Virus record (IMG/VR): IMGVR_UViG_2531839477_000018 | Length of the DNA: 37,133 nt | Direction: 5' to 3' (one strand) | Origin: a virus | Lineage: Duplodnaviria > Heunggongvirae > Uroviricota > Caudoviricetes | Shown: positions 2,051 to 37,133 of the stretch, one piece after another | How positions within the stretch are numbered: the stretch's first letter is position 1 | Layout: the number at the start of each line of letters is the position of its first letter | Notes under the pieces: generated by a model | What the model was told of the DNA's origin: nothing | Database searches by the model: none | What the model saw: only the letters and a program-made list of their open reading frames with translations | Translations under genes and position numbers: made by a program

Positions 2051-2455
2051 TCACCTACCCTTAGTTTCGTTATAGTCACGACCAGCGATACGGTTATTAC
2101 CACCAGAAATATTTAACTCACGTCCTGATGGCTGAGTTTCCTTTTCACTGATCGCACCTTTTAAAGCCCCAATCACCGCGTTTTTCACATCTAACGAAGC
2201 TGCTCGAAAGCGAGTAATCAACTCCTGCTCATCATCGTTATAAGTTTCAGGTGAGTGAATTCCCAACACAACATACTGAACATCAAGGCCAAAACGAGAC
2301 AGCGCTGCCAAATACGCAGCATCAGGAAAGCTATCTCCTTTCTCATATCTAAGCTGAGTTAGCTTTTTGACTCCACCAATGTCGCTCATGGCAACTTGAC
2401 TAAGTCCCAATCTTTCCCTTTCCTCACGCAACCGCTGACCAATATCATTTTTCAT
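2051..2455 (-). CDS. HTH (XRE-type) immunity repressor, CI-like
   Basis: N-terminal helix-turn-helix IGQRLREERERLGLSQVAMSD; ORF track gives 2051-2530 but the internal Met at MKNDIGQ (2455) is the likelier start; divergent from rightward early operon. Confidence 0.7.
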   Translation of the reverse strand: MKNDIGQRLREERERLGLSQVAMSDIGGVKKLTQLRYEKGDSFPDAAYLAALSRFGLDVQYVVLGIHSPETYNDDEQELITRFRAASLDVKNAVIGALKGAISEKETQPSGRELNISGGNNRIAGRDYNETKGR

Positions 2456-4982: not shown

Positions 4983-5278
4983 GCACCATCAACCACCAGA
5001 AGCTACGCGAACTGGCATTTGCCCTGCAACGAATGGCAACGCCTCAAAAATTACTGGCATTTCGCGCAATGCTCTCGCCGTCTGCTGTGCTGGCACTGCT
5101 GGATCAGCTGGAGCACGCCAGAACCACGGCTCCTGCCATTCGCCTCACGCTCCATCATGAAATCGCTGATTTCTGCGCAACGCTGGGGGCACCTGGCGAA
5201 CCGGAAACGCCGGAAGCAATGCAGCAAGAGCTGCTGCAACGCATCGATAACGTTTTTGATTTTTTTCTGAACCAGTAA
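4979..5278 (+). CDS. Hypothetical early protein
   Basis: 99-aa ORF, coupled to previous gene. Confidence 0.45.
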   Translation: MSTINHQKLRELAFALQRMATPQKLLAFRAMLSPSAVLALLDQLEHARTTAPAIRLTLHHEIADFCATLGAPGEPETPEAMQQELLQRIDNVFDFFLNQ

Positions 5279-5401
5279 GAAACCAGAACATGCACACACA
5301 AAAAAACCGCTTGCCATGCCTCAATCGGTCAGGTTACATTTCCGCTGCAGCTCATAAAACGGGTGCCGGGATTCTCAACCCGATACAGAGCAAAGCGCAT
5401 A

Positions 5402-5425
5402 ACCGCGCAAGCGGTTTTTTTGTGC
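5402..5425 (+). terminator. Putative rho-independent terminator
   Basis: ACCGC-GCAA-GCGGT hairpin followed by a run of seven T; an inverted copy of the same 15-mer lies at 5309-5323. Confidence 0.4.
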
Positions 5426-5600
5426 GTACTGTATTGCCACGTCTTTTTCGCGTCAGAATTATGGCGGGGCGTACGGGGCCGACTTCGGTCGGGCCGGATT
5501 CTTTGCTCTCCGGTGTTGAGAACCCTGTACGTCTCGCCACCCCGAGATTCTCAACTCTGGATGGTGAGTTATTTCTATCACCGAGCAAAGAGGCCACACC

Positions 5601-5831
5601 ATGGCAGACCGCAAACAGCACCGCACTATCGCGGAGCGTCGTCACATCCAGACTGAAATCAACCACAGACTTTCCCGCGCATCACGCGTCGCGCAAATCA
5701 TGCACATCAATATGCTGCATGAGCGCAGCCACGCACTATCAAACATTTATTCCGCCTCTGTTTTCAGCTATCTGGCGGATGATCTGCACGAGCTTCAACA
5801 GCTCATCCAGCAGCAAAACAAACTCCATTAA
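5601..5831 (+). CDS. Hypothetical small protein
   Basis: 76-aa ORF with AAGAGG RBS 8 nt upstream of ATG. Confidence 0.35.
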   Translation: MADRKQHRTIAERRHIQTEINHRLSRASRVAQIMHINMLHERSHALSNIYSASVFSYLADDLHELQQLIQQQNKLH

Positions 5832-5903: not shown

Positions 5904-6269
5904 ATGATTCTCGCCAACGACTTTCTTGAATACCTGCTCAACACAGAGCGTGATCTTGCCGCTCGCGTACGTGATCGTTATGACATGTATCTGAAATCCC
6001 TGCCTGTACCGCAGCTCGCTGACGGAAAAATTGTTATTGATGGTCGCTACATGATTGACAGCCACGAGGGGAATTACAGGCTTTACCGCATTGAAGCCGG
6101 CACCCCGTCCGTTATTGGCATTTACCAGCGCCCATCCTCTGCGATCGTCGATGTGATTGCCGACAGCATCCGCATCACACACCACCATGCCGACACAGAA
6201 GACACTGTGCTGGAGATTCAGCGGCTGGCTGCCGTTTGCCGTGACACTCTGAACGGAATGACGAAGTAA
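5904..6269 (+). CDS. Hypothetical protein immediately upstream of replication gene A
   Basis: 121-aa ORF with AAGAGGA RBS; position analogous to P2 B but no recognisable similarity. Confidence 0.45.
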   Translation: MILANDFLEYLLNTERDLAARVRDRYDMYLKSLPVPQLADGKIVIDGRYMIDSHEGNYRLYRIEAGTPSVIGIYQRPSSAIVDVIADSIRITHHHADTEDTVLEIQRLAAVCRDTLNGMTK

Positions 6270-6275
6270 ATCAGT

Positions 6276-9098
6276 ATGACGACAGAGTACATCAGGGACT
6301 GGCAACAACCGCGCCACGCAGTAGGACGTGAAGGAACGGGGATCCCCGCACCTGAATCCGCACTTTCCTCCTGGCTGGATGCCTACCGGGCAGAGAACGA
6401 ACGCCGCCAGGAAATGGCTGATGCGGCGTTCTCCGCCACACCGCTGGGCAACCTGATTAATAAAAGCCTGGACGCACAGGAAAAACAGGACAAAACCATC
6501 ACACTGGCCAGAGAAGCCAGAAAACAGGCACGCGGCGCGGTGGATGAAGCCATGGCCTCGCTGCGCCTGCTGCCATCCTATCTGCGCGATCCGCTTATTC
6601 GCCACCTCTCCTTCCTGCGCAAAAAACAGGAATCTGACCGCCAGAAAGGTAAAAAGAACCAGCAGGCTGAACGCTACGCGCGCGGGACCCTGCGCAAAAT
6701 ATTCGAACGTCTGGACCGCACCGACCACCGCTGGCTGACACCGGGTTATCGCTCCCTTGCCGGACGCGAACGCCTGGATGATTTGCTTTACCTCCCGCAG
6801 CTCAACAAGCACCAGATACAGACGCTGGCCACCATGACGGCGGCGATGTTCAGCAGCACCTTCGAAAAACTCTGCGATGGCTTTGGCGCGACCGATGGCG
6901 AGCTGACCATGGATGTAACGCTGAAGGCGTATCAGATGCTGGCCCGCATGGCGTTACACCTGCACATCATGCCTCCACATTATGACGCACTGACAACAGA
7001 TAAAGACCGGAGGAACGAACCGGACACGGAGCTGCTGCCGGGCGCAATCCTTCGCCTGACCTGTGCGGAATGGTGGAAACGCAAACTGTGGCTGTTACGT
7101 TGCGAGTGGAGAGAAGAACAACTCCGCGCCGCCTGTCTGGTTTCCAGAAAAACATCACCCTATCTGAGCCAGGACGCGTTAAGCGAGTTTCGCGCACAGC
7201 GCGAGAAAACACGCGATTTCCTGAAAAGTTTCATGCTGGAAAATGAAGACGGATTCACGATTGATCTCGAGACAGTGTATTACGCGGGAGTAAGTAACCC
7301 GGTTCACCGTAAGGCAGAAATGATGGCCACCATGAAGGGGCTGGAACTTCTGGCCGAAGCCCGTGGCGACAAAGCGGTGTTTCTGACTGTCACCTGCCCG
7401 TCAAAATACCACGCCACAACAGAGAACGGTCATCCGAATCCCAAATGGAACGGGGCCACCATGCGCGACTCCAGCGATTACCTGGTTAACACGTTTTTTG
7501 CGGCGGTCCGCAAGAAACTGAACCGCGACGGCCTGCGCTGGTATGGCATCCGCACGGTGGAGCCTCACCATGACGGCACCGTGCACTGGCATATGATGGT
7601 CTTTGCTCATCCGGAAGAAATCGACAGCATCGTGGCCATCACCCGCGATATTGCCATTCAGGAAGACCGCCACGAGCTGGGCAATGACATAACTCCGCGC
7701 TTTAAGGCAGAGTACGTCGACGGTTCGAAAGGTACGCCGACCAGCTACATCGCCACCTACATCGGAAAGAACCTGGACAGCCGCGCCGTGGATGGCATTG
7801 ACCCGAAAACAGGCAAGCCACGCGTTGATCACGAAACCGGAAAATCAATGGCCGAGAGCGTGGAACGCGCCATCGGCTGGGCGCGCCTTCACCGCGTCCG
7901 CCAGTTCCAGTTCTTTGGTATCCCCTCCCGTCAGGTATGGCGTGAACTCCGCCGCCTTGCCAGTCAGATGGCCCGCAACCCGGAAGGTCCACAACGTCTG
8001 GAAAATGACGCAATGGATGCGGTACTCGCTGCCGCTGATGCCGGGTGTTTTGCCACCTACATTGAGAAACAGGGTGGCGTACTTGTTCCACGCAAGGATT
8101 ACCTGATTCGCACCGCCTACGACCTCGCAGAAGAGCTGAACGATTACGGCGAGCAAAGCGTACAGATTTACGGGATCTGGTCGCCACAAATCGGGGAATC
8201 TTCCCGCGTGTGCACGCCCCCGGATAACTGGAAGCTGGTAAGACGTAAACCGGAAGCGGAAGACAGCGCCCGCGAAAATGGTTTTGACCTTCAGGGCGGC
8301 CCTGCCGCCCCTTGGACTCGTGGCAATAACTGTCCCCGTGTACAGGAAACGGACAACAACGGGACAGAACAGCCGGAAGAACGGCCAGCACCGTGGCCGC
8401 AGCTCCCTGACGGCGTTGAAGTGAACGAATGGATGCGCTCACTGAAACGGCACGAACGCCGGGCGCTGATGCGTTCGCTTCGTGACAAACAGGCAAAAAA
8501 CAGCAGTGATGAAATGCAGAGCTGGACACAGAGCCGCAAACAGCAGCGGCCTTTGCCTGATAACCACGAATTACTCGCTAAAGAATGGCGGGAGTCTGCT
8601 GAATCTCTCGGCCTGCATATCGGTGAACAGCAGATGCAGCACCTGTTACGGGGCGGCAGTCTGTACGTTGACGGCAGCATCATTGCACCGCAGGGATTTG
8701 AAATTGTACGCAAACCGGATACCCGACCGGACAGCCGGATCACGCAGCTCTGGCAGCGCCTGAGCCGTAACCACGGCGTAAGCAGCACGGAGATCCGCCA
8801 TAACCCGGTCGCCAGCTATCTGGAACTGCTGGGGGCATCAGACCCCGAAGCCGCCGCACGCCTGGCATCCACACTTCAGCAAGACCAGAACACCATGAAA
8901 ACACCCGTTACCGTGCTTTCTGACATGCTGCGCGCCATCCGCGACGCAGAGCACGCACAGAGAATCAGTGAAACCACTGAACGCGCCCACCGCAAAGCAG
9001 ACCTGCTGCAGGGTGGCCTGACCAGTGGAAACAAAAAACAGACAGAAACGGGATTCACAAATCCCGTAAATGAGCAAAAAACGCGCCGCGATATATGA
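6276..9098 (+). CDS. A: Replication initiation protein A (rolling-circle endonuclease, P2 gpA-like)
   Basis: 940-aa ORF; HUH-type metal-binding motif (..GTVHWHMMVFA..); position downstream of early operon as in P2/186. Confidence 0.85.
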   Translation: MTTEYIRDWQQPRHAVGREGTGIPAPESALSSWLDAYRAENERRQEMADAAFSATPLGNLINKSLDAQEKQDKTITLAREARKQARGAVDEAMASLRLLPSYLRDPLIRHLSFLRKKQESDRQKGKKNQQAERYARGTLRKIFERLDRTDHRWLTPGYRSLAGRERLDDLLYLPQLNKHQIQTLATMTAAMFSSTFEKLCDGFGATDGELTMDVTLKAYQMLARMALHLHIMPPHYDALTTDKDRRNEPDTELLPGAILRLTCAEWWKRKLWLLRCEWREEQLRAACLVSRKTSPYLSQDALSEFRAQREKTRDFLKSFMLENEDGFTIDLETVYYAGVSNPVHRKAEMMATMKGLELLAEARGDKAVFLTVTCPSKYHATTENGHPNPKWNGATMRDSSDYLVNTFFAAVRKKLNRDGLRWYGIRTVEPHHDGTVHWHMMVFAHPEEIDSIVAITRDIAIQEDRHELGNDITPRFKAEYVDGSKGTPTSYIATYIGKNLDSRAVDGIDPKTGKPRVDHETGKSMAESVERAIGWARLHRVRQFQFFGIPSRQVWRELRRLASQMARNPEGPQRLENDAMDAVLAAADAGCFATYIEKQGGVLVPRKDYLIRTAYDLAEELNDYGEQSVQIYGIWSPQIGESSRVCTPPDNWKLVRRKPEAEDSARENGFDLQGGPAAPWTRGNNCPRVQETDNNGTEQPEERPAPWPQLPDGVEVNEWMRSLKRHERRALMRSLRDKQAKNSSDEMQSWTQSRKQQRPLPDNHELLAKEWRESAESLGLHIGEQQMQHLLRGGSLYVDGSIIAPQGFEIVRKPDTRPDSRITQLWQRLSRNHGVSSTEIRHNPVASYLELLGASDPEAAARLASTLQQDQNTMKTPVTVLSDMLRAIRDAEHAQRISETTERAHRKADLLQGGLTSGNKKQTETGFTNPVNEQKTRRDI

Positions 9099-9174: not shown

Positions 9175-10134
9175 ATGAAAATTTGTATCGATGACGGCTC
9201 CACCAACATCAAGCTGGCATGGACTGAGAACGGCGAACGCCGCAACGCCATCAGCCCGAACAGCTTCAAGTCGGAATGGTCTGCGCCGTTCGGTGGCACG
9301 CAGCCCGCGAACTACATGCTTGATGGCGTGCGCTATGGTTTTGATCCTGTCAGCGATCGCTTTGTCCAGACGACCGACACGCAATACCAGTACAGCGATG
9401 TGAATGTCATTGCCATTCATCACGCGCTGGTCAAATCAGGCATCACGCCACAGGCGGTGGATGTGGTTGTCACCCTGCCGCTGAGCGAGTATTTCGACAC
9501 AAACGCCCAGCCGGATATGACCAACATCAACCGCAAAAAAGCGAACGTTATGCGCCCGGTGGAGTACCAGAACGGTGAGGCATTCACTATCCGTAATGTA
9601 CGGGTTATGCCTGAATCCATTCCGGCAGGCTTTAAGGCACTGGCTGACATGAGTCCGTTTGAATCCCTGCTGATTGTGGATTTGGGCGGAACCACGCTGG
9701 ATGTGGCAAAGGTTCAGGGACAACTGGCAGGTATCAGCCAGGTGTTTTGCGATCCACACGTAGGCGTTTCCCTGATGGCCGATGCCGTACTGTCGGTGAT
9801 GGCCACTAACGGTATGCGTACCAGTCACCACATCGCCAATACCATTATCGAACATCGCCATGATGAAGCCTGGCTGCGCCAGCACATCCACAATGACGCG
9901 CATTACGCCAGCCTGATGGCGGTTATTCGTGAAAAGGAAGAAACACTGAAACAACGCGTGATCCGCGCGCTGGCGGGTTTTTCGGGTTACGGGCGGGTGA
10001 TGGTTGTCGGTGGCGGGACGGAGATTGTGGCACCCGCTATCCGCGAAGCCTGCGGAGTTAATGCGACTTTCATCGCGGACGGGGTGCCACAGTTTGCTCT
10101 GGTTAATGGGCTGTACGCAATGGACAAGGAGTAA
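9175..10134 (+). CDS. parM: ParM/StbA-family actin-like segregation ATPase
   Basis: N-terminus MKICIDDGSTNIKLAW matches the ParM/StbA phosphate-1 signature (R1 ParM begins MLVFIDDGSTNIKLQW); later ..DLGGTT.. and ..VVGGG.. ASKHA motifs; 319 aa. Confidence 0.75.
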   Translation: MKICIDDGSTNIKLAWTENGERRNAISPNSFKSEWSAPFGGTQPANYMLDGVRYGFDPVSDRFVQTTDTQYQYSDVNVIAIHHALVKSGITPQAVDVVVTLPLSEYFDTNAQPDMTNINRKKANVMRPVEYQNGEAFTIRNVRVMPESIPAGFKALADMSPFESLLIVDLGGTTLDVAKVQGQLAGISQVFCDPHVGVSLMADAVLSVMATNGMRTSHHIANTIIEHRHDEAWLRQHIHNDAHYASLMAVIREKEETLKQRVIRALAGFSGYGRVMVVGGGTEIVAPAIREACGVNATFIADGVPQFALVNGLYAMDKE

Positions 10135-36130: not shown

Positions 36131-36217
36131 TGGTACCCGGAGCGGGACTTGAACCCGCACAGCGCGAACGCCGAGGGATTTTAAATCCCTTGTGTCTACC
36201 GATTCCACCATCCGGGC
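36131..36217 (-). tRNA. leuZ: tRNA-Leu (anticodon UAA)
   Basis: Reverse complement reads GCCCGGATGGTGGAATCGGTAGACACAAGGGATTTAAAATCCCTCGGCGTTCGCGCTGTGCGGGTTCAAGTCCCGCTCCGGGTACCA, 87 nt with CCA end. Confidence 0.95.
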
Positions 36218-36229
36218 TCGGGAAGAAAG

Positions 36230-36303
36230 TGGAGGCGCGTTCCGGAGTCGAACCGGACTAGACGGATTTGCAATCCGCTACATAACCGCTTTGTTAACGC
36301 GCC
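36230..36303 (-). tRNA. cysT: tRNA-Cys (anticodon GCA)
   Basis: Reverse complement reads GGCGCGTTAACAAAGCGGTTATGTAGCGGATTGCAAATCCGTCTAGTCCGGTTCGACTCCGGAACGCGCCTCCA, 74 nt. Confidence 0.95.
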
Positions 36304-36357
36304 AAATTCTTCAGGCCTTTCAGCCAGACATCCGCTTGAGGCCGATGTCTTTTAAAC

Positions 36358-36433
<76 letters not shown>

Positions 36434-36584
36434 ATTCATCAAGCAATCAGTTAATCACTTGATTTTATTATCGTCTGGCAATCAGTGCCGCCGTTCGATG
36501 CGTTGCATTCTACTTACCTGGCGCGATGAGTCAACGATATTTTTCACCACTTTTGATCGTTTGCTGAAAATTGCGCCGAAACGA

Positions 36585-37133
36585 TCACTGATCAAGCAAA
36601 TCTGCACGCGCAGCGCTCAAATATTGCAACATTGACCACAGAGTCAGTACCGCAGCCACAAAGAAAAGTGCAATACCGGCGTACTCAACCCAAATGTTCG
36701 GACGCCACAGCAGCCAGGCCAACGCCACCATCTGGGCAGTGGTTTTCACTTTCCCAATCCAGGAGACAGCCACGCTACTGCGTTTACCCAACTCCGCCAT
36801 CCATTCGCGTAGCGCAGAAATAATAATTTCACGGGCGATCATCGTTGCCGCCGGTAGGGTCACCCACCAGCTGTGATAATGCTCGGTTACCAGCACCATG
36901 GCGATAGCCACGAGAACTTTATCTGCTACAGGGTCAAGGAAAGCACCAAACCGGGTACTCTGGTTCCAGCGGCGTGCCAGAAAACCATCGAACCAGTCAG
37001 TCACCGCCGCGACGCAGAAAATGAGCGCGGCGGCAAACGGCGACCAGGTGACAGGCAGATAAAAGACCAATACAAAGAATGGGATAAGGATGACACGGAA
37101 CAGTGTAAGCAACGTAGGGATATTAAATTGCAT
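36585..37133 (-). CDS. pgsA: CDP-diacylglycerol--glycerol-3-phosphate 3-phosphatidyltransferase
   Basis: 182-aa [30 protein letters not shown].. with the CDP-alcohol phosphotransferase motif D-G-x2-A-R...D-x3-D (..[19 protein letters not shown]..); conserved E. coli neighbourhood pgsA-glyW-cysT-leuZ; start is the last codon of the window. Confidence 0.95.

Follow-up and report, generated by a model that had tools for sequence, protein, structure and literature searches.

The window, a stretch of DNA of 37,133 nucleotides, is made up mostly of a P88-type prophage of the P2 family (Peduoviridae, Xuanwuvirus) from E. coli. Its left edge (1-1002) carries an integrase gene on the minus strand. Its right edge (36131-37133) carries genes for tRNA-Leu, tRNA-Cys and tRNA-Gly, at 36131-36433, together with a gene for a CDP-alcohol phosphatidyltransferase (probably pgsA), which shows that the window ends in host DNA on this side. 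ARAGORN reports just these three host tRNAs, and a tRNA-like gene in the interval described below was thus discarded as a candidate.

This interval, positions 5290-5600, lies between two groups of early genes. Upstream of it are accessory genes of the early operon, including a MarR-like gene and an Ead/Ea22-like gene, the latter ending at 5278. Downstream follow, in this order, a gene of 76 amino acids, ORF121 and the 940-aa replication gene A. Directly 3' of gene A, as in P88, is a gene for a ParM/StbA-type segregation ATPase (9175-10134; 273 and 228 bits), a plasmid-style partition function inside a P2-family prophage. The features of the interval and of the genes next to it are listed in Table 1.

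Table 1. Features identified in the interval and downstream of it, in window coordinates.
Feature	Coordinates	Strand	Evidence and remarks
Ash/Eta-like through-ORF, 205 aa	5290-5907	+	ATG 5290, 11 nt past the stop of the upstream gene
5' arm of 15-nt long-range inverted repeat	5300-5314	+	Exact partner 5407-5421; chance expectation 0.00 matches
Promoter-like site	5311-5340	+	-35 TTGCCA, 18-nt spacer, -10 TACATT (consensus scan)
IsrK/seqA-like leader RNA	5347-5421	+	Rfam RF01394, 59.5 bits (threshold 50), model 1-77/77
b1 box	5372-5379	+	In a hairpin loop of the leader; complementary to b'
a1 box	5387-5395	+	In the leader; complementary to a'
Intrinsic terminator	5401-5421	+	GCAA-loop hairpin and T7 (terminator scan)
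C4/CI-like antisense RNA	5457-5544	+	Rfam RF01695, 78.5 bits (threshold 45), model 1-87/87
UUCG hairpin of C4	5477-5492	+	Inside the long closing stem
Third hairpin of C4 with loop a' AUUCUUUGCUCU	stem ~5493-5514, loop 5498-5509	+	
Single-stranded b' segment GUUGAGAA	5515-5522	+	Complementary to b1 and b2
b2 target box GATTCTCAAC	5546-5555	+	5548-5555 complementary to b'
a2 target box GAGCAAAGA	5583-5593	+	5583-5591 complementary to a'; overlaps SD AAGAGG
Epsilon-like 'derepression protein' gene, 76 aa	5601-5831	+	Pfam PF25738 (Derepression), 34.2 bits (threshold 27)
ORF121 and replication gene A	5904-6269; 6276-9098	+	Phage_GPA, 439 bits for the 940-aa ORF

Two RNA families in the interval

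We scanned the whole window with Rfam at the curated gathering thresholds, and a repeat of the scan returned the same two matches in the interval. One is a leader RNA of the IsrK/seqA family, the other an antisense RNA of the C4/CI family. The minimum-energy fold of the C4 segment is the consensus structure of its family (-47.6 kcal/mol, z = -4.9), and none of 200 shuffled sequences folds as well. The Rfam model c4-a1b1 (RF03163) gave no match in the window, with E values allowed up to 1; the isrK model spans the segment concerned.

A reading made earlier from the letters of the window, here called the sequence-only reading, had proposed a regulatory RNA or terminator cluster that splits the early operon at this place. 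The two full-length Rfam matches above curated thresholds, obtained by the covariance search that it had suggested, and the covarying boxes bear this out. All the elements that it listed exist, at coordinates shifted by 1-9 nt. The repeated box GATTCTCAAC is real and lies at 5370-5379 and 5546-5555 (placed at 5375 and 5547), and its complement GTTGAGAA is at 5515-5522, matching the position given. The inverted 15-mer is AAAAAAACCGCTTGC at 5300-5314, with its reverse complement at 5407-5421 (placed at 5309-5323 and 5402-5425). What had been described as a GNRA hairpin with a T7 terminator is a GCAA-loop hairpin with a run of seven T at 5401-5421, and the UUCG hairpin is GGCCGAC-TTCG-GTCGG at 5477-5492. 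A second triple of boxes had been overlooked: two copies of GAGCAAAG, at 5388 and 5583, and the stretch complementary to them at 5501-5508. The box GATTCTCAAC is found exactly twice in the 37-kb window, and 0 of 100 shuffles give at least two matches.

Existing annotation is silent on both RNAs. In the RefSeq and P88 records that we inspected, no ncRNA is annotated over the module, and in the E. coli RefSeq record the region is devoid of any annotated feature. P88 (NC_026014) has a 62-aa hypothetical CDS, SF19_gp13, on the minus strand at 5033-5221, opposite the IsrK and C4 RNAs; this CDS call is probably spurious. Such records, with no ncRNA in RefSeq or in GenBank phage entries, would agree with a plain intergenic spacer that holds a terminator and chance repeats, and no regulatory RNA. 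Against it stand the two Rfam matches over curated thresholds, repeats beyond chance expectation, covariation above that of all 500 shuffles (see below), and the match to window 5200-5700 in 1157 of 5426 complete E. coli genomes. We regard a plain spacer as exceedingly improbable. By nucleotide comparison, a stretch of 501 nt around the module is ~88% identical in P88 and its relatives.

The promoter-like site in front of the leader (TTGCCA-18-TACATT) agrees with the consensus at 9 of 12 positions, and its predicted start is at ~5347. The hexamers are unchanged in a four-sequence alignment (A1). P4 carries the hexamers TTGCCT/TATAGT in the same place relative to its own isrK match, which we take to be the PLE promoter. 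A second promoter-like site at 5434-5462 is unlikely to matter: its start would fall in the closing stem of C4, and its -35 hexamer is unconserved.

The long-range inverted repeat (5300-5314/5407-5421) has one arm where the module begins and the other over the terminator's 3' half with its U-tract. In the minimum-energy fold of 5296-5425 it forms an 18-bp helix that replaces the terminator hairpin. Its 5' arm spans about -47 to -33 of the predicted promoter, with an A-tract at about -47 to -41, and coincides with codons 4-8 of the 205-aa frame. The repeat is kept as 10-12 nt in most epsilon-type relatives and shows no covariation; the arm is invariant in the relatives. The repeat might act as an UP-type promoter element together with the -35 region, as an antiterminator, or by masking the start at 5290. 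Of these, the role of antiterminator is not supported. The fold would permit it, but position 3 of the terminator loop varies uncompensated (GCAA, GCCA, GCTA, GCGA), and the apparent P4-like counterpart, GACGCATG, falls in the coding end of the upstream gene.

Loop-target pairing and covariation

The a' loop and the b' segment of C4 are complementary to boxes on both sides of it, a1 and b1 in the leader and a2 and b2 downstream. In four relatives of ~88% identity the stems are the same and the a' and b' loops differ, with a1/a2 and b1/b2 altered to match. The C4 of P88 differs in its loops, with GUUCUGUAGUUG as a' and GUGGAAA as b'.

More modules were collected from IMG/VR by a pattern search on the C4 stem, which gave 120 loci, 119 of them usable. 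This DNA pattern was far more productive than a contig scan with a single epsilon-like protein, which returned 2 loci only. The 119 modules, all exact matches to one C4 stem and hence a set of close relatives, hold 22 a' loops and 10 b' loops in 27 combinations, with cognate complementarity at fixed offsets.

Covariation was computed on an alignment (A2) of 22 type representatives. The C4 closing stem is 100% paired in the 22 relatives, with compensatory changes at 2 pairs. Taken together, the C4 stems and the a'-a2 and b'-b2 helices have 97.8% of cells paired and a covariation score of 0.280, against 0.087 in shuffles. Both sides are changed in 6 of the 11 a'-a2 pairs (95.9% of cells paired) and in 4 of the 8 b'-b2 pairs. 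The upstream helices, a1-a' and b1-b', are 96.0% paired and score 0.684, against 0.124 in shuffles; 7 of the 9 pairs of a1-a' are doubly changed. Each loop-target helix thus has 4 to 7 doubly changed pairs, and for neither set does any of 500 shuffles reach the observed score. When the partner is slid by 1-3 columns, pairing drops to 26-54%. This control retains the relatedness of the sequences yet fails, which counters the caveat of shared ancestry. Cognate duplexes have mean energies of -13.1 (a) and -10.1 (b) kcal/mol, versus -5.7 and -3.4 for non-cognate ones. The duplexes of the window itself come to -14.3 (a'-a2) and -10.2 (b'-b2), then -12.2 and -9.8 kcal/mol.

The sequence-only reading had named a protein-coding frame conserved through the region with no covariation as the pattern that would speak against it, and had pointed to compensatory changes in a comparative alignment as the check. 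Such changes are present, and because the covariation is strong, that pattern is not what the alignment displays.

Box a2 overlaps the Shine-Dalgarno (SD) sequence AAGAGG at 5588-5593, 7 nt ahead of the ATG at 5601. The overlap between a2 and the SD occurs in every type of alignment A2.

Between types, the b' loops show mutual complementarity above chance: 5 pairs reach at least 6 nt, versus 0.49 expected from shuffled loops. Examples are the P88-type GUGGAAA with the P4-like UUUCCAC, and the GUUGAGAA of the window with UUCUCAC of P4. The loci involved are the window (5515-5522), P88 (L002), P4 (L005) and three further loci, L017, L019 and L036. This could reflect an evolutionary swap of loop and target, or cross-talk among co-resident elements.

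The epsilon-like gene and the through-frame

The 76-aa protein encoded behind a2 is 30% identical to P4 epsilon over 66 aa (BLASTP, E = 2e-10), and P4 epsilon itself scores 170 bits against PF25738. In RefSeq the product is named 'derepression protein'. The sequence-only reading had suggested gene A as the controlled gene. This part has to be revised, as the gene with its SD inside box a2 is the epsilon-like one, which is presumed to be the direct, regulated target of the module. We infer that any effect on gene A is indirect, via polarity; ORF121 and gene A are possibly affected by polarity or by translational coupling from the module, by analogy with related systems.

Identical C4 types and epsilon variants are found alongside two unrelated classes of repressor, encoded up to 6 kb upstream (loci L006-L125): one is P2 C-like, 31-100% identical to P88 C, the other is the unrelated HTH repressor of the window (2051-2455). 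The epsilon-like protein may therefore not match the phage's own repressor. The activity associated with the Derepression family is to bind and inactivate an immunity repressor of the P2 C type. The cassette of C4 and epsilon appears to recombine freely, and its occurrence with both repressor classes argues against tuning to the repressor of the phage that carries it.

According to the sequence-only reading the interval has no convincing ORF. This stands for the 104-aa ORF on the minus strand, which is spurious: minus frames are open in at most 14 of 75 relatives, and the ORF has no family matches. A 97-aa ORF starting with GTG was likewise discarded, with no family matches and a frame that is seldom open in relatives. 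The judgement does not stand for the 205-aa ORF, whose frame is kept open and whose position resembles that of P4 eta and the Pfam Ash family.

In 74 of 75 unique relatives no stop interrupts the 205-aa frame across the module, whereas the other two plus frames are free of stops in 9 and 2. Among 62 variants of the variable boxes, none has a stop in this frame, versus 15 and 8 in the other two. At least 7 distinct upstream junctions retain an in-frame ATG 9-12 nt before the A-tract. At its other end, the TGA at 5905-5907 overlaps the ATG of the next gene at 5904 (ATGA), an ending that is found in most relatives. In most epsilon-type relatives the frame runs on across the epsilon-like gene, shifted by one base, up to that ATGA. 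Of 56 unique epsilon genes, 55 leave the shifted frame open, for which random synonymous recoding yields only P = 0.02-0.38 per lineage.

These observations give good, not conclusive, evidence from sequence that the frame is translated for regulatory reasons. They could also be taken to mean that the functional product is a protein: a regulator encoded by the 205-aa Ash-like ORF, whose conservation as coding sequence would produce the RNA-family matches as a side effect. The open frame in 74 of 75 relatives and the start codon kept across differing junctions fit this, as do the matches at E ~1e-13 to 1e-14 to PHROG 995, 6928 and 821, families that contain P4 eta and are labelled 'transcriptional regulator/repressor'. 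However, the variation is confined mostly to six short boxes that change together for base pairing and not for amino acids, while the stems are invariant in nucleotides. The C-terminal half of the ORF overlaps the epsilon-like gene off-frame and is low-complexity and rich in Ser, Thr and Cys. Against Pfam PF10554 (Phage_ASH) the ORF scores 19.2 bits, under the threshold of 26, where P4 Eta scores 82.2; we therefore call it Ash/Eta-like by position and not as a family member. Its Gifsy-1 equivalent, orf45, is conserved as nucleotides and not as protein (PMC4825925). The through-ORF does not look like a protein with a function of its own, and we hold a protein product as the basis of the module to be very improbable.

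The epsilon-like gene, with its ATG at 5601, uses another frame than the through-ORF, so there is no same-frame nesting of the kind seen with kil/Icd-like genes. In Rha-type and Icd-type relatives the downstream gene is in frame, with its ATG at +125 and +122, respectively. The C4 scaffold of these relatives is that of the window, UUCG hairpin included, and it stands before other cargo, namely Rha/Bro-like genes of ~185 aa (L014, L015, L007) or, in a P4-like context, Icd-like genes of 64 aa (L017, L052, L109). Both kinds of cargo share the frame of the through-ORF, as kil, nested in eta, does in P4.

Related systems and a proposed mechanism

IsrK and C4 are structural homologs of seqA and CI of P4 (PMC3632133), and systems of this kind are also described for P1, P7, N15 and lambdoid prophages (PMC3632133; also PMC10111431, PMC4825925). 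Scanned like the window, P4 gives a C4 match of 74.9 bits at 8420-8507 (CI) and an isrK match of 60.8 bits at 8615-8692 (seqA). Promoter-like hexamers, b1, a1, terminator, C4, b2 and a2 on an SD follow one another in the same order in both. Both have an epsilon homolog downstream and an open frame through the module, which in P4 is eta: an ORF of 214 aa that spans isrK and C4 and ends in an Icd-like domain. Its translation from an upstream promoter prevents termination in P4 (PMC10111431). A helper-type phage here shows the P4 layout, seqA - CI - ... - epsilon - ... - replication gene.

The two also differ. The element in the window is a full P2-like phage with gene A, whereas P4 is a satellite with the alpha primase. 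After a2 the window has the epsilon-like gene directly, whereas P4 has a kil/Icd-like ORF; accordingly a2 of P4 (TTCACAGGAGG) sits on the SD of that ORF and a2 of the window on the SD of the epsilon-like gene. In the window the regulated gene and the through-ORF are in different frames, in P4 in the same one. Between ORF121 and P4 orf151 no similarity was found.

The immI region of P1 and P7 (c4 - icd - ant) has the Rfam family RF01695 in common with the window. As in the window, each of its loops a' and b' has two targets, one upstream (a1, b1) and one downstream (a2, b2), and the target on the downstream side extends into the ribosome-binding site of the first gene, a small one; variation of loop and target sets the specificity of immunity. 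Unlike P1 and P7, the window has an epsilon-type gene and not icd-ant downstream, and its upstream targets are within an IsrK-like terminated leader, in the setting of a P2-family early operon.

In Gifsy-1, a lambdoid prophage of Salmonella, the mechanism involves isrK, orf45 (STnc1160) and anrP (PMC4825925). There orf45 starts at a conserved AUG at the 5' edge of a C4-like element and is coupled through AUGA to the antirepressor gene, and a short IsrK RNA lifts the block (PMC4825925). Gifsy-1 and the window both have an IsrK family match above threshold, with short terminated and read-through forms of the RNA expected, and both have an antirepressor-type gene downstream. The window has a comparable AUG at 5461-5463, at the 5' edge of C4 and in frame with the ORF whose AUGA end overlaps the next gene. 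The orf45 of Gifsy-1 has 45 aa and is coupled directly to anrP; the frame in the window counts 148-205 codons, passes over the epsilon-like gene and has its coupling with ORF121.

We propose that 5290-5600 is an RNA immunity module of the type of P1 c4, P4 seqA-CI and Gifsy-1 IsrK and, by analogy with these, works as follows, with a probability of roughly 80%. The computations establish the family memberships, the fold, the loop-target complementarity with its covariation, the overlap of a2 with the SD, the homology to epsilon and the frame kept open; for promoter use, for processing of the RNA, for repression and polarity, and for what the epsilon-like protein does, we extrapolate from P1, P4 and Gifsy-1. 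The promoter inside the module (~5311-5340) would start the leader at ~5347. Transcripts would either end at the terminator (5401-5421), as an RNA of ~75 nt that holds b1 and a1, or continue into the C4/CI-like RNA (5457-5544), which by analogy may be excised, by RNase P, from the longer transcript as a stable RNA of ~80 nt. Its exposed a' and b' would pair with a2 and b2 just downstream on the mRNA. Since a2 contains the SD of the epsilon-like gene, the pairing would block translation of this gene and, by polarity, probably lower the expression of ORF121 and gene A. The upstream copy, a1/b1, may act as a second binding site or as a decoy. Transcripts from the early promoter would carry the ATG at 5290, and translation of the Ash/Eta-like frame from there probably overrides the terminator and the RNA control, as does eta in P4, handing ribosomes to ORF121 through the ATGA overlap.

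Besides the promoter match at 9 of 12 positions, the lack of an annotated ncRNA, the occurrence with two unrelated repressor classes and the close kinship of the covariation sample, all given above, two points count against this explanation. One is the frame of the regulated gene, which is unlike that in P4 and in the Rha- and Icd-type relatives. The other is that the outcomes differ among the model systems: in P4 it is premature termination, for which the upstream a1/b1 copy is required, and in P1 translational repression with Rho polarity. In Gifsy-1 it is activation by the short RNA (PMC4825925). The sequence is compatible with each balance.

It is possible, though we think it doubtful, that the P4 outcome prevails here, with the C4/CI-like RNA mainly causing premature termination on the nascent transcript through a1/b1 and a2/b2, and with ORF121 and A as the key targets. 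The module lies directly upstream of the replication genes and has an intrinsic terminator between a1 and C4, and P4, for which this mechanism is described (PMC10111431; PMC4825925), has homologs of its RNAs and of its epsilon gene. Against this, a2 lies over the SD in every type, which points to a block of translation as the first event, and no terminator was identified downstream of a2. Moreover, in Forti 1999 and Biere 1992, termination in P4 and P1 is itself reportedly a consequence of blocked translation.

The kind of system is well known, and this instance is recognised by existing curated models; the current understanding of how such modules work is unchanged. We found no paper that describes such a module in P88-like phages, where it is likely to be the switch that silences an epsilon-type derepressor. 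It links a P2-family phage to the immunity system of the satellite P4. Annotating both RNAs would correct records that leave the region blank or fill it with small hypothetical ORFs, and the variety of loops and targets offers a ready set of apparently orthogonal RNA-RNA specificities.

More speculatively, and in our view unlikely to hold as a whole, P2-family helpers would share the RNA-immunity and epsilon cassette of satellite P4 as a loop barcode, with at least 22 a' and at least 10 b' loops, unlinked to the repressor and serving in phage-phage or helper-satellite conflict. The translated, non-protein-like frame over epsilon would then be a conduit for ribosomes past the RNA block to the replication genes. 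If so, the cassette would control a derepressor aimed at other resident elements, and the complementarity between loops of different types would make RNA-RNA cross-talk between co-resident elements conceivable.

Two further occurrences of the module stand apart. It is present at ~90% identity to its Escherichia and Salmonella counterparts, with an epsilon-like protein that is 86% identical, on a 226-kb contig of a supposed Firmicute (NZ_JBQPOM010000071.1, L004, labelled Vagococcus sp. WN89Y), which may be a case of assembly contamination or misassignment. In the Citrobacter phage Shae_phiSM (OR565851, 31144-32196), the match to window 5204-5692 is in two pieces across 1053 nt, which implies an insertion of ~560 bp within or beside the module there.
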